This document shows, piece by piece, positions 3,246-63,614 of a stretch of 64,000 bases of DNA. Both the position numbers and the translations under genes were made by a program. Source of the DNA: Candidatus Methanophagaceae archaeon. GTDB taxonomy: Archaea > Halobacteriota > Syntropharchaeia > Alkanophagales > Methanospirareceae. Below the pieces are notes generated by a model. That model worked only from the letters and a program-made list of their open reading frames with translations. It was not told where the DNA came from and searched no databases. How positions within the stretch are numbered: position 1 is the first letter of the stretch; every line of letters begins with the position of its first letter. The stretch is taken from assembly GCA_003194425.1 (NCBI GenBank), contig PQXB01000001.1, positions 199,265-263,264 of the forward strand. Direction: 5' to 3'.

Positions 3246-4055
3246 ATGTTTGAAGCCAAGATAGATTTGGGCGTGCTGCGGGGCTGCATAGAAGCGATTA
3301 CAGCAGTAGCGGACGAGGGACGGTTGAGAATAACGGAGGACGGGTTGAAACTGCGGTCGGTGGATCCTGCGAATGTGGCGATGGTCTCGTTTGAGCTGCA
3401 GAGCGACGCTTTTGACGATTTTTCGCTTGAGCTTGCAGGTGCGGTGGAGACAGAGAAAGAGGGGAAGGGAGAAGAAGGAAAAGAGACGAGCATCGGAATG
3501 GATTTTGTGAAGTTGCTTGGGATTCTTGGAATAGGCGGCAGAGGAGGGGAGGAGATTGAGTTGAAATTGGACGAGAAGGGGCAGAAACTGTTCACGAGGA
3601 TGGGCAGTCTCGCCTACACGATTTCGTTGCTCGCTTCTGATTCGCTGCGTAAGGACCCGAAGGTGCCGGAGCTTGAGTTTCCAGCGCAGGTAATTCTGGA
3701 GATTGAGGATTTTAAGCGGGGGATTCGTGCTGCCGAGAAAATCGCCGAGAATATCGTTCTTGGAGTGGACGGCGAGAGCGAGGAGTTTTTTATGGAGGCG
3801 GAAGGCGAGATGGACAAACTGCGGCTGGGCTTGAGGAAGGAGCAGTTAATTTATTTAACGCCGCCCGCGGAGAAGGTTCGTTCGTTGTACTCGCTGGACT
3901 ACCTCTCGGCGATGAGCAGGGGGATTTCTGCCTGCCACGCGGAGCAATTAACACTCAATCTGGGCAAGGACTACCCGCTGCAGATTGATTTTGAGGTGGC
4001 AGACGGCAGGGGAAAGGTCAGTTACTTGGTGGCGCCGAGAATAGAGTCGGAATAG
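3246..4055 (+). CDS. pcn: DNA polymerase sliding clamp PCNA
   Basis: MFEAKIDLGVLRGCIEAITAVADEGRLRITEDGLKLRSVDPANVAMVSFEL is a PCNA N-terminus. An internal Gly/Glu-rich insertion is present. An AT-rich promoter region with a TATA-like box and an RBS lies upstream. Confidence 0.8.
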   Translation: MFEAKIDLGVLRGCIEAITAVADEGRLRITEDGLKLRSVDPANVAMVSFELQSDAFDDFSLELAGAVETEKEGKGEEGKETSIGMDFVKLLGILGIGGRGGEEIELKLDEKGQKLFTRMGSLAYTISLLASDSLRKDPKVPELEFPAQVILEIEDFKRGIRAAEKIAENIVLGVDGESEEFFMEAEGEMDKLRLGLRKEQLIYLTPPAEKVRSLYSLDYLSAMSRGISACHAEQLTLNLGKDYPLQIDFEVADGRGKVSYLVAPRIESE

Positions 4056-4065
4056 TTTAGTCAGG

Positions 4066-5814
4066 TTGGTAAGGGCGGGACAAATGTTGGTCCGTAACTG
4101 CGACTACCGAGTGGCGTTGGCGCAGATAAACGCGACCGTAGGGGATGTAGAAGGCAACGCCGAGAAGGTGATTGGGTGCGTCAAGAAAGCGAAGTGGGCG
4201 GGGGCGGATTTGGTGGTCTTCCCTGAATTGACGACCACAGGCTACCCACCGAAAGACCTCCTGCTAAAACCCTCTTTCATTTCCGCGAACAAGGAAGGTC
4301 TAAAAAAAATCGTGCGTGCAACGAGCGGGAGCGGAATTGCGGTTGTCGTCGGCTTTGTTGACGGGGTTGCTGACGCTGACCTTGACGCTGACCAAGGGGA
4401 GAACTACAACGCAGCCGCTCTTATTCGGAACGGGCGAGTGGTGGGCGTGCAACGTAAGACGCACCTGCCGAACTACGATGTCTTTGACGAGAAAAGATAT
4501 TTCAAGCCCGCAACAGCAACAGAGACGAGCGTCTTTGAACTGGAGGGGGAGGAGGGAGGAAGGGAGGGGCTCAGGGAGGGGCTCAGGGAGGGGCTCAAGC
4601 TGGGAATAAACATCTGCGAGGACATTTGGGCGGGGAACGGCCCCACGACAGCACAAGCGAGGCTCGGGGCTGACCTCGTCGTAAACCTCTCAGCGTCACC
4701 GTTTTACGCAGGCAAAAGCAGGACGAGGCGGGAACTAATTTCGAAAAGAGCACGGGAGAACAGGATTCCAATCGCGTGTGTCAATTTAGTCGGCGGTCAG
4801 GACGACCTTGTCTTTGACGGCGGGAGTTGCGTCTTTAACGCAGCGGGCTCTCTAATCGCAGAGTGCAGGCAGTTTGAGGAAGATCTCGTGGTCGCAAATT
4901 TGGAGGGGGGAGGAAAAATAAAAATTCCAGAGAAGGAAGACCCGGTTAGAGAGATTTTCGGTGCTTTGGTGTTAGGAATTCGGGACTACGTGCGAAAGAA
5001 CGGGTTTGAGAAGGTCGTCGTTGGGCTGAGCGGCGGCGTGGACTCGGCGCTCTGTGCTGCTCTGGCAGTAGAGGCGTTGGGTGCGGAAAATGTCGTCGGC
5101 GTCTCGATGCCAAGTGCAGTCACCTCGCAAGCCAGCAAAGAAGACGCCGTGCGGCTGGCTGCGAACCTCGGAATAGAACTCAAGGTCGTTCCGATTGTTC
5201 CTGCGGTTGACGCTTACACTGAAATGCTCTCTGCGGAATTCAGCCGAGAGCCAGAGACAGAGCCAGAGACAGAGCCAGAGACAGAGCCAGAGTCAGAGCC
5301 AGACGCGACAGAAGAGAACATTCAGGCGCGGATTCGCGGGAATGTCTTGATGGCACTCTCAAACAAGTTCGGCTACCTCGTGCTCTCAACAGGGAACAAG
5401 TCCGAGTTGGCGGTCGGCTACTGCACTCTGTACGGCGACCTGGCGGGCGGGCTGGCGGTGCTCTCGGATGTCTCGAAGACGACCGTCTACAAACTCGCAA
5501 AATACACTAAAGTCATTCCAGAGGAGATTTTAATAAAACCGCCTTCTGCAGAGCTGCGGGCGGGGCAGAAGGACACGGACTCGCTCCCGCCTTACGAGGT
5601 GCTTGACCCGATTTTGCAGGCTTACATCGAGGAGAACAAGAGCAGAGAGGAAATAATTGCGCGGGGTTTTGACGCAAGCGTGGTGAGCGAAGTCGCCTGG
5701 AAGGTGGACCGCAACGAGTACAAGCGGCAGCAAGCCCCGGTGGGCATAAAAATAACGTCAAAAGCTTTTGGCTCTGGCAGGCGAATGCCGATTACAAACC
5801 GATACAACGACTGA
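4066..5814 (+). CDS. nadE: Glutamine-dependent NAD+ synthetase (N-terminal CN-hydrolase domain plus C-terminal NAD synthase domain)
   Basis: VVFPELTTTGYPPKDLL is nitrilase-like. GLSGGVDSALCAALAVEALG is the PP-loop SGGxDS motif. It carries a perfect 12-bp x4 in-frame repeat encoding EPETEPETEPETEP. Confidence 0.85.
   Translation: MVRAGQMLVRNCDYRVALAQINATVGDVEGNAEKVIGCVKKAKWAGADLVVFPELTTTGYPPKDLLLKPSFISANKEGLKKIVRATSGSGIAVVVGFVDGVADADLDADQGENYNAAALIRNGRVVGVQRKTHLPNYDVFDEKRYFKPATATETSVFELEGEEGGREGLREGLREGLKLGINICEDIWAGNGPTTAQARLGADLVVNLSASPFYAGKSRTRRELISKRARENRIPIACVNLVGGQDDLVFDGGSCVFNAAGSLIAECRQFEEDLVVANLEGGGKIKIPEKEDPVREIFGALVLGIRDYVRKNGFEKVVVGLSGGVDSALCAALAVEALGAENVVGVSMPSAVTSQASKEDAVRLAANLGIELKVVPIVPAVDAYTEMLSAEFSREPETEPETEPETEPESEPDATEENIQARIRGNVLMALSNKFGYLVLSTGNKSELAVGYCTLYGDLAGGLAVLSDVSKTTVYKLAKYTKVIPEEILIKPPSAELRAGQKDTDSLPPYEVLDPILQAYIEENKSREEIIARGFDASVVSEVAWKVDRNEYKRQQAPVGIKITSKAFGSGRRMPITNRYND
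5247..5303. repeat. Perfect in-frame tandem repeat, 12-bp unit GAGCCAGAGACA about four to five copies, inside nadE
   Basis: Direct reading of the sequence. It encodes (EPET)n. Confidence 0.9.
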
Positions 5815-7275: not shown

Positions 7276-7598
7276 AATAATTTAATAGATGGTTTTGTGT
7301 TTACCTCCTTTTTAACGAGGTGGAGAAAAAAGCTTGAAAGGAGGAGAAAGATATGGCGGCGGTGCGGTAGAGGAGGTGGTAGAGGAGGTGAAAAATATAT
7401 TAACTCTTGTGCCAGAGTTGTTGGAGGTTCCACATTCAATGGACCTCCTACAAATGAATGACAAAATGAATGACAGAGACAAAATCGAACGGGGATTATC
7501 GCGGAAAGATTGAAAGTTGGAGTACGGGCACGGAGACAGAAGAACCGAACGAAGAACCGAACGAAGAACCGAACGCAAGGAGGAGGTAGAGGAACTAA

Positions 7599-8921: not shown

Positions 8922-9174
8922 TGTATCTCGACAGGCTTGCTCAAAATTGGAAACTGCATTGCAGGAGAGTGAGCAGGAAGGAGAGGGGACAGGAAGGAGA
9001 GTGAGCAGGAAGGAGAGTGAGCAGGAAGGAGAGTGAGCAGAGCAGGTGTAGGAGGTGCAGGAAACAGGAGTGCAGAAGCAGTTTGGCGAGACGGTGGGGA
9101 GATTTCCGTTACTGCACCGTCGTAAGTTTGATCAGTAGTATTTCTTATGTACGGATAAAGAGGAAATAAAGAAA

Positions 9175-10716: not shown

Positions 10717-12309
10717 GTGGTAGGATTGTTTTTAGGTGAGCATTTTCCAGTGCTTGTTGTTGTGATTTCGCTGTTCTCGGCGTTCACGATTCTGCTTGCG
10801 GGTTGGTGGGAGAAGAGGACCTGCCTGCCGATTTCGCTCGCCACAATTTCAGTGCAGCTTTTTATGGCTCTTTACATTCTGCGGGAGGTCGTGAGCAGCG
10901 GCGAGGCGATTCACTACTGGCTCGGGGGTTGGGCGCCGCCTTGGGGGATTGAATATGTTCTGGACGCGTTCAACGCCTACGTGCTGGTCGTGGTTTTGTT
11001 CGTCTGCTTGCTGACTGCGGTTTTTTCGAAGCGGAGCGTTGAGAAGGAACTGCCCGGTAAGGTCGTGCAGTTTTATGTTCTTTTTCAACTGCTCGTGACC
11101 GGTTTGTGCGGGATTTTGGTAACCGGTGACATTTTCAACCTCTACGTCTTCCTTGAAATCTCCTCGTTGACGACTTACGCGTTGATCGCAGCCGCACGCG
11201 GGCGGGCGCTGAAAGCGAGCTACAATTATGTAATTTTCGGCTCAATCGGCGCCTGCTTCTACCTGCTCGGCGTCGGCTTCCTCTACGCAGTAACAGGCTC
11301 GCTAAATATGCACGACCTCGCACTGCTCCTTCCACCGCTCTACGAGAACAAGGTAGTGCAGGCGGCGTTCGTCTTCTTCGTCGTGGGAACGAGCATAAAA
11401 ATGGCGCTCTTCCCGCTGCATATTTGGCAGCCCGACGCCTACACCTACGCCCCCTCTGCGGTCAGCGTGGTAATTGCGGCGGCGATGTCGAAGGTCTCGA
11501 TTTACGCCTTCATCCGCGTCTTCTTCTCGGTCTTCACCACGAAATTCCTCCAAATTTATGTCCCGATTGATACTGCACTCTGCTGGGTCGCTGCGGTCGC
11601 GATAATTGTAGGCTCGGTCATCGCGATAACGCAGACCAACCTGAAGCGAATGCTCGCCTACTCGAGCGTCTCGCAGGTGGGCTACATCGTGCTCGGAGTG
11701 GGGCTTTACTCGACGCAGTGGGGGCTTTACGGGGCTTTGATGCACATCTTGAACCACGCTGTGACGAAGGGCTGTCTCTTCGTAGTCGCTGGTGCGATAA
11801 TTTACAGAACCGGGCTGTTAGACATTCGCGATTTCGCGGGGCTGGGGAAGAAAATGCCTTTCACTTGCGCGGCGTTCACTCTTGCGGCGCTTTCGATGAT
11901 TGGGGTGCCGCCGAGCGTGGGGTTCGTAACGAAATTGTGTCTGCTGGCGGCGTCGTTGGAAGCGGTGGAATACGGGCTTGTAGCAGTTGTTCTTGCCAGC
12001 ACGCTGCTCAACCTCGTTTATTTCTGGCGTGTGATTGAGCGGATGTATTTTGTGAAGCCAGGAAGAGAAGGAAAAGGAGCGGCAAGAGAGGAGAGAGCGG
12101 CAAGAGAGGAGAGAGCGGCAAGAGAGGAGAAAAGTGGAAGAAAGATAATGAAGGACGAGGCACCTGTAAGTATGCTTATTCCAGCGTTAGTTCTCGGCTC
12201 GCTCTGCGTCGTCCTTGGACTGCTCTGGCTCGCAGGTTCGGCGACGCCGCTGCTGCCTGTAGTTGAGCAGGCGGTTGAAGGGCTGTTAAGCACGGGGGTG
12301 GTAAAATGA
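10717..12309 (+). CDS. Proton/cation-translocating antiporter-type subunit (NuoL/NuoM/MnhD family)
   Basis: A 530-aa polytopic protein with conserved Complex I antiporter-module helices (WQPDAYTYAPSAVS). It contains an 18-bp x3 in-frame repeat encoding AREERAAREERAAREE. Confidence 0.75.
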   Translation: MVGLFLGEHFPVLVVVISLFSAFTILLAGWWEKRTCLPISLATISVQLFMALYILREVVSSGEAIHYWLGGWAPPWGIEYVLDAFNAYVLVVVLFVCLLTAVFSKRSVEKELPGKVVQFYVLFQLLVTGLCGILVTGDIFNLYVFLEISSLTTYALIAAARGRALKASYNYVIFGSIGACFYLLGVGFLYAVTGSLNMHDLALLLPPLYENKVVQAAFVFFVVGTSIKMALFPLHIWQPDAYTYAPSAVSVVIAAAMSKVSIYAFIRVFFSVFTTKFLQIYVPIDTALCWVAAVAIIVGSVIAITQTNLKRMLAYSSVSQVGYIVLGVGLYSTQWGLYGALMHILNHAVTKGCLFVVAGAIIYRTGLLDIRDFAGLGKKMPFTCAAFTLAALSMIGVPPSVGFVTKLCLLAASLEAVEYGLVAVVLASTLLNLVYFWRVIERMYFVKPGREGKGAAREERAAREERAAREEKSGRKIMKDEAPVSMLIPALVLGSLCVVLGLLWLAGSATPLLPVVEQAVEGLLSTGVVK

Positions 12310-13973: not shown

Positions 13974-14402
13974 TTAGGGAGTATGTCTGTTACGCCGAGC
14001 CTTCTCCTTCTTCTCGAAGAGCGAGGGCAGGTGAATTGCGTAAGAGCCGTCCTCTTTCAGTCTCATTATTATTCCCCTCCTGCCTAACAAAGTATCCAAA
14101 TTGAGTTCGTAAACGCCCGGGCTTACAATCTTCAGACTCTCAATCTTGTCCCCCTCAGACGAGAGCTCCCCCCCACCCCCAGCCTCTTCCAACGGCTCCA
14201 CTCCTTCTAACGCCGCTCCTTCTAACGGCAGTTTCCCAGCCGTCTCTGTCTTCTTTTCTAACCGCCGCACCAACTCGGTGGCGTGCTCTTCCTCGCCTTC
14301 TCGAACATACAGAAAAAGTTTGCTACCACACTCTGGGCAACCCCCAAACATCCCCTCATTCATCTTCTCGAAGTCCTTACCGCATCTTAAACACTTGTGC
14401 AT
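13974..14402 (-). CDS. Zinc-ribbon protein (archaeal conserved, function unknown)
   Basis: N-terminal CLRCGKDF...GGCPECGS has two CxxC pairs. Confidence 0.45.
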   Translation of the reverse strand: MHKCLRCGKDFEKMNEGMFGGCPECGSKLFLYVREGEEEHATELVRRLEKKTETAGKLPLEGAALEGVEPLEEAGGGGELSSEGDKIESLKIVSPGVYELNLDTLLGRRGIIMRLKEDGSYAIHLPSLFEKKEKARRNRHTP

Positions 14403-14405
14403 TTC

Positions 14406-14804
14406 TCAAATCTCCGAAATTACCGCACTTATCCAGTCCTTCCCCTTCTTTATCGTGTGCATCGTCTTCGCAGGGCCCACAACGGTAAGCCGCGTCTTCT
14501 TTCGGAGGTTAAAAAAACCCTTCTTGCTCGGGTACCCGCTCATTTCAATGCCCGTAAAATCCTCGTCCACCTCCAACATCGCGAGTTCTATCAATTTCAT
14601 CTGCTCCTCCGAAGTCAGACCGCCCTCCAAAACAACAATATTTCCGGACTTCACCCCGTCCAGCACGAACCTTATTTTTTCCATCGAGCCCATTGAATTT
14701 ACTTTATCTTCCGAGATTAAGTCCATCTTTATGTTCATATTTCTCTTCTCTCTTTCCTCCCCTCCTTCCTCTCTTTCCTCCCCTCCTTCCTCACTTCTCT
14801 TCAC
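14406..14804 (-). CDS. Uncharacterised conserved protein. The real start is probably MNIKMDLISEDKV. The N-terminal EEGGEERE repeats come from a tandem repeat.
   Basis: The ORF sits directly upstream of the Zn-ribbon gene on the same strand and has a globular-looking core. Confidence 0.4.
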   Translation of the reverse strand: MKRSEEGGEEREEGGEEREKRNMNIKMDLISEDKVNSMGSMEKIRFVLDGVKSGNIVVLEGGLTSEEQMKLIELAMLEVDEDFTGIEMSGYPSKKGFFNLRKKTRLTVVGPAKTMHTIKKGKDWISAVISEI

Positions 14805-14873
14805 TTCTCTTCACTTCTCCTCTTCCCTCCACATCTAAACCGCTCGCCCCTAAACCGCTAAACCGCTCACTGC

Positions 14874-15653: not shown

Positions 15654-15688
15654 TTTCTTTCCCTCAAACCTGATTTAATAATTCCCTG

Positions 15689-15772
15689 CCTCCTTCAACA
15701 CTTTTCCTACTTCCTTCAACACTTCCCCTACTTCCTTCAACACTTTTCCTACTTCCTTCAACACTTTCCCCA
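15689..15772. repeat. Intergenic tandem repeat, 22-bp unit (TCCTTCAACACTTTTCCTACTT) x4, in the divergent promoter region between the GTPase gene and aIF1A
   Basis: Direct reading. The copies are contiguous with no unique spacers. Confidence 0.9.
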
Positions 15773-15829
15773 CTCTTTATTTAAAATTAAACTTAAATAT
15801 TTTACGAGAGCAAAGCAAGAGGAAGAAAA

Positions 15830-48603: not shown

Positions 48604-48792
48604 ACACTCCTCCTCTTTCTGCTCCTCTTTCTGCTCCTCTTTCTGCTCCTCTTTCTGCTCCTCTTCTTCTCACTCTTTTTCTCACACTTTTTCTCACACC
48701 TTTATATAGAAGCAGCGTTATTGTTTTAATGTCCCTGCTTCCTCGCTCTACTGATAAAAGGGAAAAGGAGGGGGGAGAAAAGGGGCAGAAAA

Positions 48793-51555: not shown

Positions 51556-51573
51556 TTTCAGTAACCCCCCTAC

Positions 51574-52491: not shown

Positions 52492-55400
52492 ATGAAAAAA
52501 ATAGGAAAATTATCGGTTGTTAGTGTTCTTTGCGCGTTTGTTTTTGTGAGTGTCCTGCTACTAACTGCAGCAGTGCCAGCGTCGGCAACTTCGTCGGCAA
52601 CTTCGTCGGCAACTTACCCGACGCTTCAGTACGACGCACAGCGAACTGGGAACGTGGGCGGTGCTGCACCAGAAACCGCCTCTCTGCTGTGGCAGTCGGG
52701 CGAGAAGACCGCAGGCTGCGTGCAAGCAGGTCCGGTTGTCTTGGACGGCAGGGTCTTTTTCACTACTTGGTGGTCGGGAGGAATGGGAGTTGAGGGGAAC
52801 GCCAGCGACGCTCTCTACTGCCTCGACGAGGAGACGGGTGAGGAGGTTTGGAACAACACCGCAGTCTTCGGCGCTTCTACTGCGGCGGTCGCAGCGGCAG
52901 AAGGGAAGTTGTTTGTGGGCACGCACCGCGGGAATTTCACTTGCGTTGACACCACGAGTGGCGAGATTTTGTGGAGCAGGCGGGTAGAAGAGAACCCGTC
53001 GTGGTACGGAGTTGGATCTTCTCCGCTCGTCTTTGACGGGACGGTCTTTGTGCTAACCTTCTCGGACGGCACGCTGCACGCCTTCTCTTTCGAGGGTGCA
53101 GAACTCTGGAACTTCTCCACAGGTGAGGAAATATTTAAGTACGCGTCGCCCTCCGCTTACGAGGACAAAATCTTCTTCGCAGGCAACTCCACAGCGGCCG
53201 CGGGGCAGCACGGACGGCACGCCTTGTACTGCCTTAACTTGAGCACGCACGAGGAGGAGTGGAATTTCACGACTGACACAGAGGTCCGGGGGACGCCTAC
53301 GATTTGGAGCGAAGGAGGGGAAGGCGGGCTGGTCTTCTTTACCACGAAATATGTCTTTGGAAAGGAGTACGGGATTTACGCGCTTAACGCAACCACAGGC
53401 GAGGAGGTTTGGTACAAAAAACACAAATCCAGCTGGGCTTCGCCTGCGGTGAGCAACGGACGGCTCTACATCGGCGGTTCTTCTGTCGACACCACTTTCT
53501 ACTGCTACGACGCGAGGGACGGCACGCTAATTTGGGAGAACGAGGAAATGGGCGGAGCGGTAGATTCGTCGCCTGTGGTCGCCGACGGCAAGGTCTATTT
53601 TGGCGAGAGCAAGGTCAACGGAACGGTCTACTGTTTAGACGCTGAGAACGGTTCGGTGCTTTGGAACTACACTCTCTACATTCCGCCGGGCTTCGGTGGA
53701 GGCTTCAACTCGGCTTCGCCCCCCGCGGTTGCAGACGGCACACTCTTTGTCGGGGTAGACAACGTGGGCGTTCTCGCGTTCCGAGACCCTCTCCTCCCAG
53801 ACCCACTCTTTTGGGAAGGCGAGGTGACGCTAACCGAGAACGCAACGACCACAGTTACCGCGCACGACAGCGGTGCGAGCTACGAAATTAACCAAACGAC
53901 CGCACTCGGAGCGCTCGCCGCAGCGGCAGCCGCAGGCGGGTTCAACTACACCGTGAGCGACAAGTGGTACGCGAGCTGGGGTTCACTGCTCGTGGATTCG
54001 ATCGCGGGAAAGTGGAACGACCCGGTCACTTGGGACGGCTGGCTGTACTGGGTGAACTACCCGGACGACCCGATGCCTGGGGTTGGTCCGAACAAATACG
54101 AAGTGGAAGACGGCGACCTCGTGACCTTTTACTACGGTGGAATGAGCGCGACGCCCGAGAACACCCCGATGCTACTGCGGATTCGTGTTCGTGTCACCGG
54201 TGCGAGCGTAGTTCAATGGAACAGCGTGACCAAAGACGACGCCACTAATTTTTCAGTGGAAGTCGGGTTAGACGAGAGCGAGGAGGTGGAGTTCCGCGTC
54301 TCCTCGGACTCTGGCGCAGGCACGGCTTACGAGTGGTCGTGGTCAGTGAACGGAGCGGAGACAAAAAAATCTGAAGGAGAAAGCACAAATTTATCGTTTG
54401 TCTTTGAAGAATACGGCATTTACAATGTCAGCGTCGTGGGAGTAGGAGTAGGTGAGGCAGAAAATGAAACTGTGTCTGCGACTTGGAATGTCTCGATCTG
54501 GCTGGTAGTAGGAGAAGAGAACGACGCTTGTGAACTGGAGGGGCTTGAGGAGTACCAGCTGCGGTTTTTAAAGCGACCCGAGCGGCTGGTTTCGATGGCG
54601 CCGAGTTGCACCGAGATTTTATTCGCGGTGGGTGCAGGCGAGAGCGTTGTCGGCGTTACCGAGTTCTGCGACTACCCGCCAGAAGTGAAAGAGAAGAAGG
54701 AGAGCGGGGAGATTGCAGTAATCGGGGGGTATTCAACTCCGAATTTTGAGAAAATCGTGGATTTGGAGCCGGATTTGGTCGTTGGTGCTCACGGCAACCC
54801 TGCTGGTGTGATTTATTACCTGCTGGAGTCGGAATATCCGGTTTACGCGATGCATCCAAAAAGCATTGACGAGATTTTTGCACACATAAAAGTCGCAGGC
54901 GCGGTAACGAGCTGCGATGAAAACGCGTCTTCGCTCTTGGAAAATTTGAGTGAGCGGCTGGAGACTGTGAAGGAGAAGACGGAGCTGTTAGAAGAGGAGC
55001 AGAAGCCGAGAGTGTTTTACAACATCGGCGACTTCTTTACCGCGGGCAAGGAGACATTTGCAGACGAGATAATTGAAATCGCAGGCGGCAAAAACATCGC
55101 GGCTGCAGACGGCAAGACAGGATATTTTATAATGAGCCTTGAGGAGCTCATTGAAAAGAATCCGCAGGTAATCCTCTGCGACAGCGGAATGGGCGAGATG
55201 AGTTTTGCGTACGAGCAAATAATGAACGACGAGCGGCTGAAGAATGTGAGTGCTGTGAAGAATAATCGGGTTTATGTAATCGACGGAGATATAATATCAA
55301 GACCAGGTCCGAGGGTGGTAGACGGGGTGGAAGCGGTTCATCAGAATTTCAGTGATTTTTTCGCCGCTAACACCCAAGAGTGCGAACTGAAAATTTCCAC

Positions 55401-55803: not shown

Positions 55804-56212
55804 GAGATTGAAACCTCTCCGCCAATTTTTGTGAATGCGTTGTGTAGTGAACTCTCCATCTCGCATCTATTCCACCATCAAAAAGCAAATGACCAAAAAA
55901 TTCCATAAGGTCTCCATTTATAGAAATCCTCATTTTTGGATTCCTTATTTCATCACTCGCCTTTTCTGTTTTGATGAGTTGGATGCCAGATTCGAGTTCC
56001 AACCCAACATCGTTGCAAATATTGTTCAACACTTTTAGCGGATAATTGTTCTTCGCTTCTTTCCATTTGTACAGTTGTCGTTGTGAGAGGTTGAACTGTT
56101 TAGCGACATTTTTTACAGTGCCATATTTCACTAACAGCTGTCTCCACAATTTTTCTCTTAATCTCTCAGTAGGCATTGCATAAATCCCGTCCATCTGAAT
56201 TTGCACCTTCAT
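55565..56212 (-). CDS. HTH-domain protein, possibly a degenerate LAGLIDADG-type homing endonuclease or transposase fragment, in an AT-rich element abutting the 23S break. Only roughly the first 165 aa (to about 55720) lie in the AT-rich element. The rest is read-through antisense to the upstream gene.
   Basis: It has its own SD (AAGGTG, 4 nt, ATG). The N-terminal LWRQLLVKYGTVKNVAKQFNLSQRQLYKWKE is an HTH. GHLLFDGGIDA loosely resembles a LAGLIDADG motif. Confidence 0.35.
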   Translation of the reverse strand: MKVQIQMDGIYAMPTERLREKLWRQLLVKYGTVKNVAKQFNLSQRQLYKWKEAKNNYPLKVLNNICNDVGLELESGIQLIKTEKASDEIRNPKMRISINGDLMEFFGHLLFDGGIDARWRVHYTTHSQKLAERFQSLTREVFGDVKFYVKHSRERNLRYFLCFLALLLLLLPRQANTGTTKHPRLAAEVSLAPASPRKTRDRKASHPSRPLVVSY

Positions 56213-56642
56213 TTTACACCTTCGTTTCTGTCCTTTGTTTTTATTAAAATGCTACCGCTTGGATTTCTGACCCACCTGAGTCAACCTTAGGGCGCCCTCG
56301 ATATTTTTTCAAGGGCATGGCGCCCCACCTGAACAGCCCACCTACCGGTGTTCTCTCGCGTCAAGCAAGAGTAAGGGTCACAACTTCGGAAGGGTAGTGT
56401 TCCATTGGCGGCTCTGTGCCTCCTGGCGAAGGCACTTCACTGCCTCCTACCTACGCTCTACATCCGAAGTCGTAGCTCAACGGCAGACTGCTGTAAAACT
56501 CCACGGGGTCTTCGCTTCCCCTTGGGGGTCCCCGGTCTTTTCGCCGGGACGATGATTTCGCCGGTTTCCAGCTAGGGACAGTGGAAGGCTCATTCCTTCT
56601 TTCGTGCAAGCCGCCAATTAAGCGGCTAGGTACTACGCTACC

Positions 56643-56807
56643 TTTCTCCCCTCCTCCGCTGCTGAGTGCCTTACTTCTGCTTAGCTTGCCTTAAATTCGC
56701 TTAGCTTTGCTTCTGCTTGGCTATTTTATAGGAGGTAAAAAAGCAATGAAAAACGAAAAGAAAAAGGGTTCTTTTCTCAAATTCGTGCTTAGTAGCAGAA
56801 GAGGAGG
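56643..56807 (-). other. Small 23S rRNA intron (about 165 nt) at roughly E. coli position 1927, just 5' of the conserved GGTAGCG
   Basis: An AT-rich, low-complexity insertion interrupts ...GTAACTCTGACCCTCTTAA | GGTAGCGTAGTACC. The intron termini are mutually complementary (CCTCCTCTTCTGC ... GCAGAAG..GGAGG), consistent with a bulge-helix-bulge substrate. Boundaries are accurate to about 3 nt. Confidence 0.55.
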
Positions 56808-57352
56808 TTAAGAGGGTCAGAGTTACCCCCGCCGTTTATAGGTCCTTCAACCCCTTGAAAAGGGCTTTCAGATACCTACACTGGGCAGGAGTCAGTGACC
56901 GTACTAACCCTTACGGGCTTGCGGTCACCTGTGTTGTTATTAGACAGTTAGCCTTCCCTTGTCACTGCGACCTGCCTCTCGCAAGGCAGGCACTCCTTCT
57001 CCCGAAGTTACAGAGCGATTTTGCCGATTTCCCTTAGCTGGATTTCCCCGACACGCCTGAGCCTTCTCAGCTAGGGGCACCTGTGTCGGTTCTCGGTACG
57101 AACGACCAGCCGCCTTTTTCACGGGCTCCTGGGCTTGACTGACTTCCTTGCGGAAGCCTTAACACATTCGCCCGCTTCTCGCCGTTACGGCTCTCCACGG
57201 GCTTCGGTGCTTGGACAGTGCGATGACACTGCTCAATCTACCCAGAAGCGTCAGGTGTCCTGTCCTCGCGGACGGACGTAGGCTGGACGGCGCAGGAATA
57301 TTAACCTGCTTCCCATTTGATGTGCTCCAGTTGGGACACATCTTAGGATCGG

Positions 57353-57383
<31 letters not shown>

Positions 57384-58629
57384 AACCTAGCCCCTTCGGC
57401 GGTCGGGATTCTCACCCGACTTTGCTGCTACTATCGCCAGGATTCTCGTTTCTGCCCGGTCCACACCTTCTCACGAAGATGCTTCCGCCCAAGCAGAACG
57501 CCCCTCTACCGGATCTCCCGCCTTAAGCAGGAGCCCTGGGGTCTCGGTGGTCGGCTTGAGTCCCTTCCATTTTCGATGCTACAGACCTCGGCTGGTGAGC
57601 TATTACGCTTTCCTTAGAGGGTAGCTGCTTCTAAGCTAACCTCCCAGCTGTTTGTGGTCTGCAACGCTCTTTAGTGTTAACACTTAGCCGACACTTGGGG
57701 ACCTTAACCTCAGTCTGGGTTATTTCCCTCGCGGACTGGGAGCTTACCCCCCAGCCCGGACTCCGACCTTCTACAACGATGGCGCCTTCGGAGTTTGACA
57801 GGAGGGCGAGGTCTTTCGACCCCGGGTCCTCCAATCGGTAGCTCTACAACGTCATCAATCTCCAGTCGGGTCATACTTTGGTATGTTTCGAGGGGAACCA
57901 GCTATCGCCGGGTTTGATTGGCCTTTTACCACTAAACGCAGGTCATCCGAGAGATTTGCAAGTCATCACCGGTTCGGCCCTCCATCCTCCTTTCGGAGAA
58001 CTTCAGCCTGCCCACGCTTAGATCACCCGGCTTCGGGTCATATTCCAATGACTCCACGCAGTTCGTACGTCGTTCCTCTCCCTACCTTCCTTTCGAAAAG
58101 ATGCGGATGCGAACTTGTTGGTTACCCTGCGGCTCCCCTTTTTCAGGTTAGCCTCGCCACTGAAATATACTCCCTGGCCCGTTCTCCAGAACGTACGATG
58201 CGACCCTGTTCCAGAACCCTCGTACTCACCCCTCGCGGGATTTTCCTTCGGACCCCTTCGTCACTTTCAAGCCGCATCACTCTATCACCATTTAATTTCA
58301 GGCTCTTTTCACCTCCTTATTTGGGGTACTTTTCAGCTTTCCCTCACGGTACTATTCCGCTATCGGTCTCAAGACGTGTTTAGTTTTGGAGGTTGGTAGC
58401 CCCCAGATTCCCGCAGGAAATTCAACCTACGGTACTCAAGTAAAGAGTCAAGCCCTCTGCCTTACGCCTACGAGGTTTTCACTCTCTTTGGCGCCGCGTT
58501 CCAGCGGACTTCGGCTTCAACAGGTCGGGCTTACACGACCCCCACTTACAACACCACATCTCCCTTCCCTTTCGAGAGGGATTCGGTTTGAACTCCGCCG
58601 TTTTCACTCGCCGTTACTCACGGCATCTC

Positions 58630-58741
58630 AAACCCCTTTCTTAAAACATTTTCTTAAAAAAAAAATCTTTACCAAAAGAACCAAAAGATTCTTTCCGTAA
58701 AGGCTTTCTTCTAAAGAAAGGCTTTTAAGAAAGGGTTTATT
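58630..58741 (-). other. Small 23S rRNA intron (about 110 nt) near E. coli position ~222 (between AGAAATCAA and GAGATGCCGTGAGTA)
   Basis: An A/T-rich palindromic insertion has complementary termini (AACCCCTTTCTTAAAA ... TTTTAAGAAAGGGTTT). Flanking sequences are conserved 23S domain I. Boundaries are approximate. Confidence 0.5.
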
Positions 58742-59125
58742 GATTTCTCTTCCTGCTCCTACTAAGATGTTTCAATTCAGAGCGTTCCCAATCCCACTAC
58801 TAACGCAGCAGGACCGACCCCGAAGGGTCAAGAGTTCCCATTAGGGCATCCTCGGTTCAAAGGCTCCTTGTACCTACCCGAGGCTTCTCGCAACTTGGCA
58901 CGCCCCTCTTCAGCGCTTGAGCCGAGCCATTCATTAAATGGCATAAATACCAGCATTTCACCTCTCCCAAGCTCATTAAATGTCAGAGTTGCAAAGTGCG
59001 TGTGACGACTTCACCTGGCAGAACGAGACAGTGCAACCTTAACTCACTGCACTGCCCTCTGCCATCAGTCCTTCGCTGAACGACAACCCGTGTCGTCAGG
59101 TGCATTTTTTCCTTTCCACCAAGAG

Positions 59126-59360: not shown

Positions 59361-60096
59361 ACGCGGTTCCCCATGTCGCCATGAGGCGTGGACTATATCA
59401 CCATCTCAAGGACTTGCTTCTTTCTGGGATGATTCGAGCCGATCAAATATGCAAAATCCCTGTAGGATTCACATCGGACAAAGAATCTCCAGTAGCACGG
59501 GTCATTTTTCTTACTCGGGTTGTGGATTTTTCCGCATTTTATCCCAAGCTCGGTAAGAAACGAACATACTTCTTCAAGGTCTTTCTTATCCTTTTGTGCG
59601 AAGTAAATGTACATTCGTGCACCCGGCTTCTTCGGAACACTACCTTCTGCATCGAAGTATCCACGAACGTAGTCTATTTTGTTCTGTCGAGTCTCGATTT
59701 TTGCATCGCGCAAAATAAATTTGGAGAACTCGACAACATAGACATTTCGCGATTTTCCTTCGCGGTAAATCCACGCATTGTATCCCATTTTACGAATCAT
59801 CGCTGTGATGAAGTAGATGAATGATTCATCGTTCTGGGTAACACGATATGTGTATTTCCGCTCAGTTGCATCATGCAGTATTCCTATGAGATAGGCTTTC
59901 GTCATCCCTTCTTTACCTTGAGAGCTCGGCGTGTAGTCTCTGAGGGGTCAAGAACCTAAACAAAAAAAGAAAAGGTTCCGACTTCCCTGCTGATTGACCC
60001 CACCCAACCCGTTGCCAGGTTGGGATACACGGGTGTTTCCAGCATATAGCCAAGTTTTTCCCAATCCCTCGCGGGAAAGGGGTCGCAACTTTCTTA
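59361..60096 (-). mobile_element. 16S rRNA intron (about 735 nt) at roughly E. coli position 1499/1500, within the universal AAGTCGTAA|CAAGGTAGCC, carrying a homing-endonuclease ORF
   Basis: The conserved 3'-terminal motif is split: ...GGGGGCTAAGTCGTAA [insertion] AACAAGGTAGCCGTAGAGG.... The insertion is AT-richer than the exons and contains the LAGLIDADG ORF. Boundaries are accurate to about 2 nt. Confidence 0.75.
59393..59905 (-). CDS. LAGLIDADG-family homing endonuclease (double-motif, intron-encoded)
   Basis: Motif 1 is KAYLIGILHDATE and motif 2 is VRGYFDAEGSV, the canonical LAGLIDADG/GFFDAEGS motifs. The 170-aa ORF lies entirely inside the 16S intron. Confidence 0.8.
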   Translation of the reverse strand: MTKAYLIGILHDATERKYTYRVTQNDESFIYFITAMIRKMGYNAWIYREGKSRNVYVVEFSKFILRDAKIETRQNKIDYVRGYFDAEGSVPKKPGARMYIYFAQKDKKDLEEVCSFLTELGIKCGKIHNPSKKNDPCYWRFFVRCESYRDFAYLIGSNHPRKKQVLEMVI

Positions 60097-60173
60097 CGAC
60101 TTAGCCCCCCTTGCGAGACTTAGGTTCGAACGCGTCAAGAAACGCGGCCTCACCTAAACCCCACTCGGCTGGC

Positions 60174-60214
<41 letters not shown>

Positions 60215-60627
60215 CCCCATTTTGAGGGGCGATTACTACGGATTCCTCGTTCACGAGGGCGAGTTGCAGCCCTCGATCCCAACCAGGAGCAGCTTTAGGG
60301 GATTACCTTCCCCTTTCGGGGTCGTTACCCATTGTACTGCCCATTGTAGCACGCGTGTAGCCCGGAAGATTCGGGGCGTACTGACCTACCGTGGCCCGCT
60401 TCTTCCTCCACCTTAGCGGCGGCAGTCCTCGCAGAGTGCCCATCTTCCTTGCGGAAATGCTGGCAACTGCGAGTGCGGGTCTCGCCCGTTGCCTGACTTA
60501 ACAGGATGCTTCACAACACGAACTGCCGACGGCCATGCGCCACCTCTCAGCTAATCCAGTAAGGTCTTCAGCCTGACCTTCATCTCGCTGTCCCCTCCGG
60601 TGAGTTTTCCGGCGTTGAATCCAATTG

Positions 60628-60678
<51 letters not shown>

Positions 60679-60792
60679 GCTGCCACCGCTCGCTCTCGCC
60701 TCTCTCCCTGTTTTTCAAAAAAATGTTGAAAGAAAAAAAAGAAAAAAGAAAAGTAGGGAATTAGGATTTTGGGTTGAGCGAGTGCTGGTTTC
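60679..60792 (-). other. Small 16S rRNA intron (about 112 nt) at roughly E. coli position 908 (GGCTGAAAC|TTAAAGGAATTGGCGG)
   Basis: An A-rich insertion with complementary ends (CCGCTCGCTC ... GAGCGAGTG) interrupts the universally conserved 907-926 region. Confidence 0.6.
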
Positions 60793-60910
60793 AGCCTTGC
60801 GACCGTACTCCCCAGATGGCGGGCTTAACGGCTTCCCTTCGGCGCTGACATCGCTCGCAGCAATGCCAACACCCAGCCCGCATCGTTTACAGCCAGGACT
60901 ACCCGGGTTT

Positions 60911-61110
60911 TTAGTGAGAAGGGAGAAAACATTTGAGTTTGATGACTTTGTCCGGATGAATAATCTTCACTTACTGTCACTCTTAGACTTACTGTCAAAG
61001 ACTTACTGACAACCTTAACGATCTTGGTGTAAGTCTTCAAGAACGATTCTACTCTGCGTTCCAATTTCACATTGGCATCATCCATTTGTTTTGTTTTCTC
61101 CCTCACTCAT
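60911..61110 (-). other. Small 16S rRNA intron (about 200 nt) at roughly E. coli position 793/794 (GGATTAGAT|ACCCGGGTAGTCC)
   Basis: The insertion splits the universal 785-805 motif. The termini form an inverted repeat (AGTGAGAAGGGAGAAAACA ... TGTTTTCTCCCTCACT). Internal CTTACTG(T/A)CA tandem units are present. Confidence 0.6.
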
Positions 61111-61352
61111 ATCTAATCCGGTTCGCGACCCTGGCCTTCGTCCCTCACCGTCGGACCCGGTCTGGTCAGACGCCTTCGCTGCCGGTGGTCCCCCAAGGAT
61201 TAAAAGATTTCACCCCTACCCCTGGAGTACCTCTGACCTCTCCCGGTCCCAAGCCGAGCAGTATTCCCTGAACGCCTGACCGTTAAGCGGTCAAATTTCC
61301 CAAGGAACTTACCCAGCCGGCTACGGACGCTTTAGACCCAATAAACGTGGCT

Positions 61353-61397
<45 letters not shown>

Positions 61398-62079
61398 ACC
61401 CAGCCCTTCCTTCAGGTGCTCTTTAGACACCTGAACAGCCTCCGTTGGAGGCACTCAGAGTTCCCTTATCGCGCTTCCGCGCATTGTAAAGTTTTCGCGC
61501 CTGATGCGTCCCGTAGGACCTGGGTTCTTCTCTCAGAACCCATCTCCGGGCTATTGCTCTCACAACCCGTACCGATCGTCGGCTTGTTAATCCGTTACAT
61601 TAACAACGACCTAATCGGCCGCAGACCTATCCTTGGGCGCCCCGCCTCTCGACGCGGCTTTCGAGCATCGCGCATTCCAGCTGCCGATGCCCTATCCGGT
61701 ATTAGCCCCAGTTTCCCAGGGGTTGTCCCAGACCCAAGGGCAAGTTGTCCACGTGTTACTGAGCCGTCCGCCGGGTTACCTCGCATTCTTCTCCCGAAGG
61801 AGAAAAAAGGAGGCACCCACGACTAACATGGCTTAATCGAACTCTGATGGCAGTAGCCTCTGGCAGGATCAACCAGTATTGAACTGCAGGGTTTCACAAC
61901 ACATTGCACACACTTCTCTGCACTTACCTACCTTCTACACTGTTTCTTACTCACCAATCAGATTTACTGGCTCGTCAGATTAGGCTTACGTCGGACACGA
62001 ACCTGCTTTCTTTCGCGGCCCCACTTTTTTTGCAGCGCAGCGGAAGTCAATTCCGCTTGCTACAAATACACATTTAATC

Positions 62080-62098: not shown

Positions 62099-62105
62099 AA
62101 TTTTT

Positions 62106-63614
62106 TTATCGTGATTTTATCCTGAATATCCGCTCTCGTGCCTTCTTTTCCAACTCGTCCGCGGAGATCCCTATTTTTGCTGCGCCCTGCCCCTGCGCGG
62201 TCATCCCCACCGCGACCGCCTCGCGCACGTACATCTCGCTCTCGTCCATTCCGGGAATTATGTAGCCCTCGCTTAACCCTTTCCCCTTCCCTTCTTCCTC
62301 CGCGTACTTCGCGATTGCGTTCGCCGCCGCGAGGCACATCTCGTCTGTTATGCATGTGGCACGCACATCTAGAGCGCCCCTAAAGACCGCAGGGAAGCCC
62401 AGAGAATTATTTACTTGATTCTCGAAGTCGCTCCTCCCGGTGGCAACAATCCTCGCCCCCGCCTCCTTCGCTTCCCCGGGCCAAATCTCTGGCACCGGAT
62501 TCGCACACGCAAAGACAACCGCGTCGTCCGCCATTCCCTCCACCCACTCCTTTTTTATCACGCCCGGACCCGGCGTCGAGAGCGCGACGCAAACATCCGC
62601 CCCGCGCATCGCCTCTTTAATTCCTCCGCTTCTACCTTCTTTGTTCGTCTTCTCGCAGATTTCCCACTTGCTCTTGTCCCCGCTCTCTCCACTCTCTCCA
62701 CTCTCTCCACTCTCTCCGCTCTCTCCCGCTCTCTCCCCAGCTCTCTCCTCCCCTCTCCCTCGCACGTCCTCTCTCTCCCGGTTCAAGATCCCGCGGCTGT
62801 CCACCACTACCAAATTTCCCCACTTCGCCCCCGCAACGCGCAAGTATTTCGCGACGCAAATATTCGCCGCACCCGCGCCGACCAGCGCAACAGTCACCTC
62901 GCTCAGCCGCTTCCCCACCACTTTCAACGCGTTCAGCAGCCCTGCGAGAATTACCAACGCCGTCCCCTGCTGGTCGTCGTGCCAAACCGGCACCCCCAAC
63001 TCAGGCAACTCCGCCTGCAGCCGCTCCAGAATGTAGTAGCACTTCGGACTCTCAATGTCTTCCAAATTCACGCCCCCAAACCCGGGCGACAGCCACTTCA
63101 CCGCGTTTATTATCTCCTCCGCATCTGTCGTCGCCAAGCAAAGCGGGAACGCGTCCACGCCGCCCAAATATTTGAAGAGCATTGCTTTGCCCTCCATCAC
63201 AGGAAGCGCCGCCTCCGGTCCCACATTTCCCAGCCCCAGCACCCGCGTCCCGTCGGTAACAATCGCCACCGAATTGCCCTTGTTCGTGTACTCAAAGACC
63301 CTCTCTCTGCTGTTTTTTATCGCACGGCTCGGCACCGCCACTCCCGGCGTGTACCAGACTGCGAAATCGTCGTAGCTCTGAACCGGCGCCTTCAGCCCGA
63401 TTTCGATTTTCCCTCTGTATTGAGCGTGGCGTTCTAAAGCGAGCTCTTCGGGCTCGGACTTGTTTGGCGCCACTAACGACTCTTTCTTCACCTCTCCCTT
63501 CTCCTTCTTCTCTTGTCTCCTCTTGATAATTACTCTTGTCTCTTCTTGGTCTTGATAAACTTTCCTCTCTTCTTGGGAATTCTTTTTAATCTCTAATAAG
63601 AGAGAAAATATCAA
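62106..63614 (-). CDS. NAD(P)-dependent malic enzyme. The true start is probably downstream of the AT-rich N-terminal extension.
   Basis: DDFAVWYTPGVA, AIVTDGTRVLGLGNVGPEAALPVMEGKAMLFK and GAGAANICVAKYL are malic-enzyme signatures. It contains a 12-bp x5 in-frame repeat encoding GESGESGESGESGESG. Confidence 0.85.
   Translation of the reverse strand: MIFSLLLEIKKNSQEERKVYQDQEETRVIIKRRQEKKEKGEVKKESLVAPNKSEPEELALERHAQYRGKIEIGLKAPVQSYDDFAVWYTPGVAVPSRAIKNSRERVFEYTNKGNSVAIVTDGTRVLGLGNVGPEAALPVMEGKAMLFKYLGGVDAFPLCLATTDAEEIINAVKWLSPGFGGVNLEDIESPKCYYILERLQAELPELGVPVWHDDQQGTALVILAGLLNALKVVGKRLSEVTVALVGAGAANICVAKYLRVAGAKWGNLVVVDSRGILNREREDVRGRGEERAGERAGESGESGESGESGESGDKSKWEICEKTNKEGRSGGIKEAMRGADVCVALSTPGPGVIKKEWVEGMADDAVVFACANPVPEIWPGEAKEAGARIVATGRSDFENQVNNSLGFPAVFRGALDVRATCITDEMCLAAANAIAKYAEEEGKGKGLSEGYIIPGMDESEMYVREAVAVGMTAQGQGAAKIGISADELEKKARERIFRIKSR
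62681..62745. repeat. In-frame tandem repeat, 12-bp unit x about 5, inside the malic enzyme gene
   Basis: The plus strand reads CTCTCTCCACT... It encodes (GESG)n on the minus strand. Confidence 0.9.

Follow-up and report, generated by a model that had tools for sequence, protein, structure and literature searches.

Short tandem duplications pervade the DNA of a thermophilic ANME-1c archaeon and change copy number between near-identical strains

We analysed a 64,000-nt stretch of archaeal DNA (contig PQXB01000001.1 of assembly GCA_003194425.1, positions 199,265 to 263,264; hereafter the window) and find it pervaded by short tandem repeats, which lie within housekeeping genes as well as in the DNA between them, and which gain and lose units between strains of one species. 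As judged from its genes and synteny, the window is chromosomal DNA of a thermophilic methanotroph of the ANME-1c lineage (ANME, anaerobic methanotrophic archaea). We consider it probable that the repeats are the product of a lineage-specific and ongoing process of short duplication, likely slippage or template switching, the output of which is filtered by selection for reading frame and foldability.

A search with Tandem Repeats Finder (TRF; score of at least 40) returned 194 rows, which collapse to 87 non-overlapping arrays totalling 3,630 bp, or 5.7% of the bases, against 0-4 arrays in each of ten third-order Markov shuffles. The pervasive repeats that the initial annotation of this DNA had described in genes and in intergenic DNA are thus real, and they extend beyond the interval given there (3400-62750), since arrays are also present at 822-3114 and 63521-63576. 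In a scan for perfect arrays, made separately from TRF, the excess over the shuffles starts at a period of 6 bp (27 arrays observed, shuffle mean 1.35) and is found again at 9 bp (16, shuffle mean 0.4), 12 bp (18), 14 bp (6), 15 bp (10) and 18 bp (4), the last four periods all having a shuffle mean of 0. Periods of 1-5 bp are at chance in the window, with 0, 0, 0, 1 and 3 arrays observed and shuffle means of 0.25, 0.1, 1.5, 1.05 and 2.05, respectively. The units span 6-36 bp, mostly 9-18 bp, and are present in 2-6 copies; the longest array measures 93 bp. Perfect arrays account for 28 of the 87, and 56 (the perfect ones included) are at least 90% matched, with the others degenerate, a spread that suggests a continuous birth and decay of arrays. 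At least one array is carried by 28 of the 51 genes of at least 100 aa, and two or more by 14.

Comparison with near-identical strains shows that the arrays are recent and still changing copy number. The window is matched in synteny, at 99.1-99.6% DNA identity, by two contigs of GCA_026133975.1 and by two ENA assemblies, and a pairwise DNA alignment of 79.7 kb between these consensus assemblies of one species contains 560 substitutions (0.70%) and 93 indels, 67 of them of at least 6 bp. Indels of this size affect the arrays in 50 of 117 comparisons (43%) at a substitution divergence of 0.70%, so that a change in array copy number is roughly 60 times as frequent as a substitution at a single site. 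Within coding sequence, 40 of the 43 indels of at least 6 bp are divisible by three, 33 lie in or beside an array and 28 repeat the neighbouring sequence almost exactly, while those not divisible by three fall in doubtful open reading frames (ORFs) or mis-called starts; of the 24 intergenic indels of at least 6 bp, only 6 are divisible by three. A difference between one copy and two is seen at 46480, where a 15-bp duplication occurs in the window only and not in strains L083 and L084, and a 24-bp insert at 32907 is found in L083 and L084 only. These whole-unit differences bear out the initial view that the expansions are recent and ongoing. Orthologues from outside the species mostly have gaps at these sites, and the inserts of the sister genus are different ones, partly degenerate, so that the condition set there for refuting this view speaks in its favour.

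The alleles of two enzymes illustrate this turnover. In the protein kinase Rio1, a 30-bp unit encoding TKRGSEENSF (16863-16952, + strand), which lies between the catalytic loop and the metal-binding loop and is missing from about 74 of 79 other archaeal orthologues, is present in 1, 2, 3 and 3 copies in four alleles that are otherwise 98-99% identical. The second Rio1 array (16155-16202, +), a perfect 24-bp unit x2.0 encoding VEEGRWLR, is present in one copy or two, the single copy being that of allele P0002 of the conspecific locus L001, and both inserts are absent from the other ANME-1 Rio1 orthologues (about 280 aa). Agmatinase carries a GEFG/GGFG array with 9/18-bp units (39050-39135, +) and a strain-variable GRSER array with a 15-bp unit x3.5 (39468-39519, +); its alleles measure 297, 303, 305 and 315 aa, and five conspecific alleles combine GEFG/GGFG, GRSER and EGGRAxEG inserts in several ways, with P0123 and P0124 alike at the GEFG array. 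We exclude an assembly artefact as the source of such differences, and find the wider alternative, that the repeats are either artefacts of low-complexity reads or ancient conserved protein repeats, scarcely credible. It is true that the sequences come from metagenome assemblies and that one repeat, DNVGDNVGD of the H+-pyrophosphatase, is a truly ancient motif, but the arrays do not exceed 93 bp, which is below a typical short-read length, the same arrays are seen in 4-5 independent assemblies and differ there by unit-sized steps, a long-read metagenome-assembled genome (MAG) of the sister genus shows the trait, and orthologues elsewhere are without the inserts.

The assignment of the window to a cellular chromosome follows from an archaeal rRNA operon, five or six tRNA genes, aminoacyl-tRNA synthetases and PCNA, from a GC content of 52% with genes on both strands, and from synteny with ANME-1c MAG contigs of 80-140 kb. 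The closest homologues of its Rio1 and agmatinase belong to Methanophagales (ANME-1) assemblies at 94-97% identity, with other ANME-1 at 55-65%. The thermophilic family ANME-1c comprises two genera, Methanoxibalbensis and Methanospirare (PMC9894754), and by its accession numbers the conspecific MAG GCA_026133975.1 belongs with the genomes of the study that defined this family. The locus of the species representative of M. ujae (L052, isolate NA091.008_2) clearly belongs to a different genus, its Rio1 being only 43-47% identical, and we infer that the window species is probably Ca. Methanospirare jalkutatii, whose type genome is the circular CP110382.1 of 1.62 Mb. Genes for MetV-like (DUF5981) and MetF methylenetetrahydrofolate reductase stand side by side at 33664-35418; this pair, which we take to be an ANME-1 hallmark that replaces Mer, is consistent with the taxonomic assignment.

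To place the trait among Archaea, we surveyed 80 Rio1-centred loci, one genome per species, with the same TRF settings. The window has 10.0 arrays per 10 kb, the conspecific loci L001 and L002 have 10.9 and 7.6, Ca. Methanoxibalbensis ujae (L052) has 7.1 and the ANME-1c long-read MAG AOM70 (L055) has 4.8, whereas the remaining 78 archaeal loci range from 0 to 2.9, most of them from 0 to 1. Other ANME-1 and other archaea thus have roughly 10-20-fold fewer arrays at this locus and are without the window's inserts. Among the 80 archaeal loci covering this neighbourhood, only those of ANME-1c show the trait. Thermophily can be rejected as a cause sufficient in itself, because the loci of the thermophilic ANME-1 lineages G60 and THS, and those of Sulfolobales and Desulfurococcaceae, hold 0-2 arrays per 10 kb; hence heat alone is not the cause. 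In the orthologues that span the array sites, 60-73% of the array residues align to gaps, and the window's arrays are usually missing even from the two other ANME-1c loci (L052 and L055). The same loop of Rio1 in M. ujae holds a different insert, which is long, degenerate and acidic, and of the 120 homologues listed for Rio1 and the 120 listed for agmatinase, only the conspecific ones have perfect amino-acid repeats. Since relatives are without the window's arrays and the sister genus has arrays of its own, the propensity is, on these comparisons of sequence, common to ANME-1c, while the individual arrays are young and specific to a species or strain. Two of the Rio1 genes compared here are disrupted, that of the M. 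ujae MAG (L052, 10154-11251) by an in-frame stop near the N-terminus and that of the long-read AOM70 MAG (L055, 9896-10845) by a frameshift that splits it; these are probably sequencing or assembly errors, and gene lengths in these two MAGs should be read with care.

Selection evidently filters what this process produces. Among perfect arrays with a unit of at least 9 bp, the unit is divisible by three in 35 of 35 coding arrays versus 10 of 21 that are intergenic or at gene edges. When all TRF arrays in coding sequence are considered, 52 of 54 are divisible by three, and the remaining two, of 1.9 copies, are no better than chance matches. The strict frame preservation noted in the initial annotation therefore holds, and with it the frame filter, but the accompanying claim that selection acts only against frameshifts is overstated, given the bias in residues and the density in coding sequence. 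Array density is about 0.67 per kb in coding sequence and about 2.5-3 per kb in the intergenic DNA (roughly 6.8 kb in total), a difference of about fourfold, and the coding-to-intergenic ratio lies slightly under the one third expected from the frame filter alone. Among the repeat residues, E (2.5x), G (2.0x) and S (1.6x) are over-represented, as are Q and R, and I, Y, M, H, L, V, P and C are under-represented; the positions of the arrays are uniform along the proteins. Together these results show that frame-breaking events vanish from genes, and that the survivors are hydrophilic and sit in loops that tolerate disorder.

The proposal that the inserts occupy loops is supported where it was tested. 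Relative to PDB 8b37, the GGSGT array of the H+-pyrophosphatase (43603-43637, - strand; 15-bp unit x2.3) lies within a 17-residue insertion; the GRSER array of agmatinase is an insertion relative to PDB 3pzl; and the EQG/EEG array of MoaC (44915-44953, -; 9-bp unit x4.3, L083 being 30 bp longer) adds 11 residues that PDB 2ekn does not have. Agmatinase was modelled with AlphaFold from a 90-sequence alignment (mean predicted local distance difference test score, pLDDT, 74; predicted template modelling score 0.81), and the only segments with pLDDT below 50 are residues 76-93 (the GEFG/GGFG array) and 208-224 (the GRSER array), both modelled as coil. A corresponding model of Rio1 (30-sequence alignment, mean pLDDT 44) was too poor and was not used. 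The repeat peptides, enriched in disorder-promoting residues and depleted in hydrophobic ones, are thus predicted to be disordered in the two agmatinase arrays.

These properties might be read to mean that the repeats are kept because they are useful, either as disordered charged loops (for thermal adaptation, solubility or condensates) or as 5' untranslated regions that tune expression. Such a reading would account for the bias toward E, G, S and R and for inserts in surface loops, for the many intergenic arrays just before start codons that multiply GGAGG-like motifs, and for the persistence of the trait in both ANME-1c genera. We nevertheless think it improbable. Non-coding DNA has about four times the density of arrays, copy number varies freely among near-identical strains, units and sites differ between genera, unrelated enzymes of every functional class are affected at positions uniform along the protein, and other thermophilic archaea are without the trait, all of which argues for mutation pressure and tolerance over positive selection.

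We propose that a genome-wide mutational process in this lineage would create, expand, contract and erode short tandem duplications in all sequence classes. By slippage or template switching, a nascent strand would re-anneal out of register, displaced by one or a few units, while DNA is replicated or repaired, and the elevated rate would have a trans-acting cause, particular to this lineage, in the machinery that carries out replication or repair. Re-annealing of this kind accounts most economically for gains and losses of whole units, and archaeal PolB and PolD are reported to slip on repeats in vitro (cited in PMC9879509). The units are unique to their loci, with arrays sharing only low-complexity purine 10-mers, and direct searches found units in their own arrays only. 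We therefore reject a dispersed repeat family or mobile element; the arrays arise from local sequence.

The arrays also carry a strand bias that follows the genes. On the sense strand, coding arrays have a purine fraction of 0.71 versus 0.60 in their flanks (Wilcoxon P about 1e-4), with G at 0.43 and A at 0.31 against a coding background of 0.33 and 0.25. Measured on the + strand, the purine fraction is 0.68 for arrays in + genes and 0.24 for those in - genes (P about 8e-8). The bias of intergenic arrays follows the nearest gene in 24 of 29 cases, and in divergent spacers the array nearest each gene takes the bias of that gene. Because gene orientation alternates many times in the window, the purine bias tracks transcription or gene orientation and not the replication strand. 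It may reflect a coupling to transcription, for example through stable purine-RNA:DNA hybrids that stall forks, or alternatively selection at the level of mRNA or protein.

Several observations weigh against the explanation by slippage or template switching in its present form. The purine bias is ambiguous, as selection or a general purine loading (58% on coding strands) could explain it. A partial terminal unit of at least 3 nt is found in 27 of 58 perfect arrays (chance about 2%), as slippage would predict; however, 16 of the 25 perfect two-copy arrays have no flanking microhomology, which is about the chance expectation, so that first duplications often look blunt. Classical microhomology-primed slippage does not explain the origin of the two-copy arrays well, and this leaves room for a different initiating step. 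Intergenic units are divisible by three in more than one third of cases (10 of 17-21); either some of these arrays belong to coding sequence that was not annotated, or unit lengths are biased in themselves. PCNA, the sole replisome gene in the window, is not unusual and is more conserved than Rio1 or agmatinase; being 66-74% identical to other ANME-1 PCNAs despite weak Pfam scores, a divergent PCNA is rejected as the cause. No responsible enzyme or defect was identified in the 64-kb window and the few loci compared, and the term genome-wide is an extrapolation from these 64 kb, about 80 kb of conspecific loci and two sister-genus loci.

One candidate for the trans-acting cause is the loss or weakening of a replication or repair function that raises the rate of duplication, such as Okazaki-flap processing (Fen1, Dna2, RNase H) or loop or mismatch repair. 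Yeast rad27 (FEN1) mutants produce tandem duplications of about 5-100 bp bounded by short direct repeats, and they show minisatellite instability with no primary effect on homopolymer runs. The duplications of 6-36 bp described here resemble this signature, in that they are short and tandem and about half of the arrays have partial flanks, and a distribution across the whole lineage fits a trans-acting defect. The yeast duplications are bounded by direct repeats, however, and the blunt two-copy arrays are without the flanking repeats typical of flap-mediated duplication; furthermore, the lack of any excess of 1-5 bp repeats argues against microsatellite instability of the mismatch-repair type. 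No Fen1 gene is present in the window. On this balance we regard the loss of a repair function as unlikely.

The closest known counterpart of the trait is found outside the chromosomes of cells. Borgs are giant linear extrachromosomal elements of Ca. Methanoperedens, low in GC and with co-oriented genes, and they carry pervasive, perfect tandem repeats of unknown cause that form new disordered protein segments and are virtually absent from the host genomes (Schoelmerich et al. 2023, PMC9879509). The likeness extends to many features: perfect or near-perfect tandem direct repeats occur in genes and intergenic DNA far above background; units in ORFs are divisible by three while intergenic ones are unconstrained (here 35/35 versus 10/21 among arrays and 40/43 versus 6/24 among strain indels); units are unique to each locus; copy number varies in the population (here compared between assemblies, not reads); base composition is skewed on the gene-carrying strand; the repeat residues promote disorder; and related genomes are without the trait. 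Partial repeats at the flanks, another Borg feature, are present in 27 of the 58 perfect arrays, but 16 of the 25 two-copy arrays lack any. There are also differences. Here the carrier is a cellular chromosome (rRNA operon, aminoacyl-tRNA synthetase genes, PCNA) with 52% GC and genes on both strands, the skew is toward G and A (G 43%, A 31%) and not toward A (48% in Borgs), cytoplasmic housekeeping enzymes are hit as much as secreted proteins, and the arrays are short, with 2-6 copies. In addition, the alternating gene orientation ties the bias to gene orientation rather than to the replication strand.

As a tentative suggestion, ANME-1c chromosomes might carry the same repeat-generating process as Borgs, in which case that process would be encoded by the cell and coupled to transcription, following the orientation of genes instead of depending on the replication strand or on a Borg polymerase. 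If true, ANME-1c, with a 70 °C enrichment culture and a closed genome of 1.62 Mb, would be a system for finding the enzyme or defect behind Borg-type repeats. A further alternative replaces generic slippage with a dedicated repeat-making activity, possibly shared with Borgs, such as a specialised polymerase or an enzyme of integrase or nuclease type that makes blunt duplications of short segments. The near feature-for-feature match with Borg repeats, the lack of microhomology in most two-copy arrays, the absence of a microsatellite excess and the sharp limitation to one lineage would all agree with such an activity. Yet no candidate gene was seen in the window, Borgs belong with Methanoperedens and not ANME-1, their repeats are rich in A and not in G and A, the 27 arrays with partial flanking units are what slippage leads one to expect, and archaeal PolB and PolD are reported to slip in vitro (cited in PMC9879509). 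We consider a dedicated activity rather unlikely, and retain slippage or template switching in a repeat-prone lineage as the probable explanation.

Other repeat systems resemble the arrays less. Bacterial variable number tandem repeats (minisatellites) and the phase-variable simple repeats of contingency loci share with them a rapidly changing copy number, presumably through strand slippage, by which closely related strains differ. Contingency loci, however, rely on units of 1-8 bp that turn a few genes for surface or virulence traits on and off through frameshifts or altered promoter spacing, whereas here short units are not enriched, frameshifts are excluded and 28 of 51 genes are affected, mostly housekeeping ones. 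The units stand head to tail without spacers, in contrast to CRISPR arrays, and the window has no 1-5 bp excess such as microsatellite instability would give.

The trait is not mentioned in two descriptions of ANME-1c (PMC9894754, PMC9539880), in a 2026 study of ANME-1 genome variation (PMC13385816) or in a tree-of-life survey of short tandem repeats (PMC12699852), and a search for literature on tandem repeats in ANME-1c or Methanophagales found no report, although coverage was incomplete and absence is no proof. Within the searchable literature, a Borg-like trait in an ANME-1 chromosome is apparently unreported so far. Its occurrence there means that the repeat phenomenon is not peculiar to extrachromosomal elements, and it offers a clean comparison for the genes responsible, between ANME-1c with the trait and ANME-1a/b without it, with the same genes and synteny. 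A further constraint, and one that Borgs do not readily yield, is that the bias in base composition goes with the orientation of the genes. Essential enzymes of an organism living above 70 °C (aminoacyl-tRNA synthetases, NAD synthetase, H+-pyrophosphatase, Rio1) tolerate low-complexity inserts that vary between strains, and with more than half of the window genes carrying young, strain-variable, disordered inserts, the ANME-1c lineage is a natural experiment on the birth of disordered regions. In practice, the arrays can serve as strain markers for ANME-1c populations, and they are a hazard for gene calling, for length filters on orthologues and for the polishing of MAGs.

Genes in the window were called with a codon-usage model and then checked with Pfam, which bore out the assignments of the initial annotation. 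They include PCNA, NadE, glutamine synthetase, glutamate dehydrogenase (GDH), HisF and CarS; two Mrp/Nuo-like subunits, OapC/B with a GTPase, eIF-1A, Rio1, a KH protein and PCMT; ProRS, RibB, riboflavin kinase, RibD_C, MptA and MetV/MetF; UDP-sugar dehydrogenase, DUF1015, agmatinase, class I LysRS and H+-pyrophosphatase; and MoaC, Sec61β, an ABC-2 permease, glycosyltransferases, ribosomal protein P1, DUF2325, DtxR and malic enzyme. A few calls are imperfect: Rio1 was given an upstream GTG start overlapping eIF-1A, GDH has a start that is too early, the small ORFs 7334-7513 and 27314-27499 are doubtful, and a HisA/F-like gene at 41368-42255 was missed.

The repeats listed as examples in the initial annotation were each located at or near their given positions, those of MoaC, RibD_C and the ABC-2 permease included, with some corrections of unit. 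NadE has a perfect 12-bp unit x3.1 at 4561-4597 (+; REGLREGLREGL, REGL x3; TRF, Pfam) and EPET repeats at 5247-5303 (+; 12-bp unit x4.8, 97% match). The array in PCNA is present as described, though weak (2.1 copies, 92% match). An Mrp/Nuo-like antiporter subunit (Pfam) carries AAREER in a perfect 18-bp unit x3.0 (12077-12130, +), with one unit fewer in L002. At the N-terminus of OapB, an EEGGEER array (14748-14796, -; 21-bp unit x2.3) has a perfect core at 14748-14792 that is 100% purine on the sense strand, and the OapA-like GTPase next to it has a DPTRNG array (15319-15359, -; 18-bp unit x2.3) that aligns to a gap in both other ANME-1c loci and neighbours a 21-24 bp indel at 15298 that varies between strains. 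ProRS carries an 18-bp unit x2.3 (22060-22100, -), with one unit more in L001 and a gap in L055, and a GGAE array (22536-22569, -; 12-bp unit x2.8) with strain indels of 12 and 18 bp. The SGAAE array of the RibD_C reductase (26732-26793, +; 15-bp unit x4.1) is extended in L001 by a 45-bp insertion at its end.

Further along, a PMI-like protein of 817 aa has a perfect FKVRG array (32011-32055, +; 15-bp unit x3.0), one unit shorter in L083 and L084, and more arrays at 31264-31307 and 31472-31523. UDP-sugar dehydrogenase holds a degenerate QGQE array (36799-36880, -; 12/24-bp units, 82% match) that is 45 bp shorter in L083 and 9 bp shorter in L084. In the DUF1015 protein, the repeat first read as SKWCES is present with the 15-bp unit SKWCE (37837-37885, -; x3.3, perfect), adjacent to a 9-bp VEK array (37896-37920). 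Class I LysRS (Pfam) has a GEKRG array at its N-terminus (39867-39947, +; 12/36-bp units) and an ESEE array (41061-41105, +; 12-bp unit x3.8), the latter with one unit fewer in L084. The LysRS gene (39813-41525, +) and the HisA/HisF-family gene (41368-42255, -) are convergent and have about 158 nt in common (41368-41525), an overlap that is annotated likewise in strain L084.

The DNVGDNVGD segment of the H+-pyrophosphatase (43721-43747, -), which the initial annotation had missed, is encoded by a perfect DNA repeat of 12 bp whose two halves use the same codons. We reject it as an insert, since it is a universal motif of the family; its codon identity could be chance codon usage, or homogenisation by the slippage process. 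MoaC has a poly-Ser array at its N-terminus (45191-45231, -; 15/21-bp units) with strain indels of 15 bp and 6 bp, and the LGG array of the ABC-2 permease (46293-46329, +; 9-bp unit x4.1) is 9 bp longer in L083 and 18 bp longer in L084. The 15-bp duplication at 46480 mentioned above belongs to a hydrophobic IAILL array (46480-46510, +; unit x2.1), one of two inside a PIG-V-like mannosyltransferase. Inside the neighbouring GT2 gene, where an array had been placed, none reaches a score of 40; there is instead a 12-mer x5.8 directly upstream of the start. The DUF2325 protein carries AEAEVE at its C-terminus (50202-50272, -; 18-bp unit x3.9) and a perfect AARN array (51147-51184, -; 12-bp unit x3.2). 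A perfect SATS array (52580-52615, +; 12-bp unit x3.0) lies near the N-terminus of a 1103-aa fusion of PQQ propeller and periplasmic-binding protein, which is apparently secreted, given its hydrophobic N-terminus. The repeat of malic enzyme is confirmed with the unit GES (62683-62736, -; 9 bp x5.9) in place of the GESG first given.

Intergenic and gene-edge arrays vary between strains in the same manner. A perfect 12-mer x3.1 upstream of glutamate dehydrogenase (7539-7575) has one unit fewer in L001, and a 16-mer x4.9 upstream of hisF (8963-9040) is 88% purine on the sense strand and contains AGGAG motifs. The array near 15.69 kb, first described as a 22-mer, is a 21-mer x4.4 (15682-15774) between the GTPase start and the AT-rich stretch upstream of eIF-1A, and lacks two units (42 bp) in L002. 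The genes for the origin-associated proteins OapC and OapB and for the GTPase (13974-15830) adjoin this array and the AT-rich stretch (15775-15810); an Orc1/Cdc6 gene was not seen among the genes of the window. A perfect 14-mer x3.0 (23582-23623) has one unit fewer in L002, a 15-mer x4.0 with 97% match lies at 27207-27266, and a 16-mer x3.0 across the TrmO stop codon (29713-29760) has one unit more in L083 and one fewer in L084. Directly upstream of the metF start, a 17-mer x3.6 (34423-34486) is 98% purine and shows a 19-bp indel relative to L083 and L084. The array near 35.45 kb is likewise present, as a 17-mer x3.8 (35448-35513; 95% purine) and not an 18-mer, and is 32 bp shorter in L084. 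A perfect 21-mer x2.0 just upstream of the ABC-2 permease start (45564-45605) is a single copy in L084.

The 12-mer x5.8 at 48610-48678 is strain-variable and abuts the GT2 start codon with five to six copies of its sense unit, CAGAAAGAGGAG, which contains GAGGAG. This array and those at 8963-9040 and 34423-34486 multiply Shine-Dalgarno-like purine motifs (AGGAG, GAGGAG) just before starts, and such start-proximal arrays might affect the initiation of translation.

The rRNA operon has peculiarities of its own. The 16S rRNA gene (59369-61879, -) is interrupted by a 203-nt insertion at 60907-61109, inside GGAUUAGAUA^CCGGGUAG, and by a 113-nt insertion at 60685-60797, both of which look like archaeal rRNA introns, and near its 3' end there is a group I intron (RF00028) bearing an ORF for a LAGLIDADG endonuclease (59393-59905). 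The 23S rRNA (56099-58943, -) matches the Rfam model from one end to the other, but only about 600 nt correspond to model positions 1968-2987, so that roughly 400 nt of the 3' domains appear to be missing or misassembled. Among the tRNA genes, tRNA-Pro at 44478-44551 was called by ARAGORN and is not listed by Rfam at the gathering threshold. A 109-nt Rfam tRNA at 25526-25634 (-), not reported by ARAGORN, matches the full 71-position model and probably contains an intron. Finally, two ORFs without Pfam hits occupy 18598-20286 in the window and are found also in L002, where the second is annotated as HinfI-like; in L001 they are absent and PCMT is followed directly by the phosphatidylserine decarboxylase gene, so that the segment looks like a strain-variable insertion of the restriction-modification kind.

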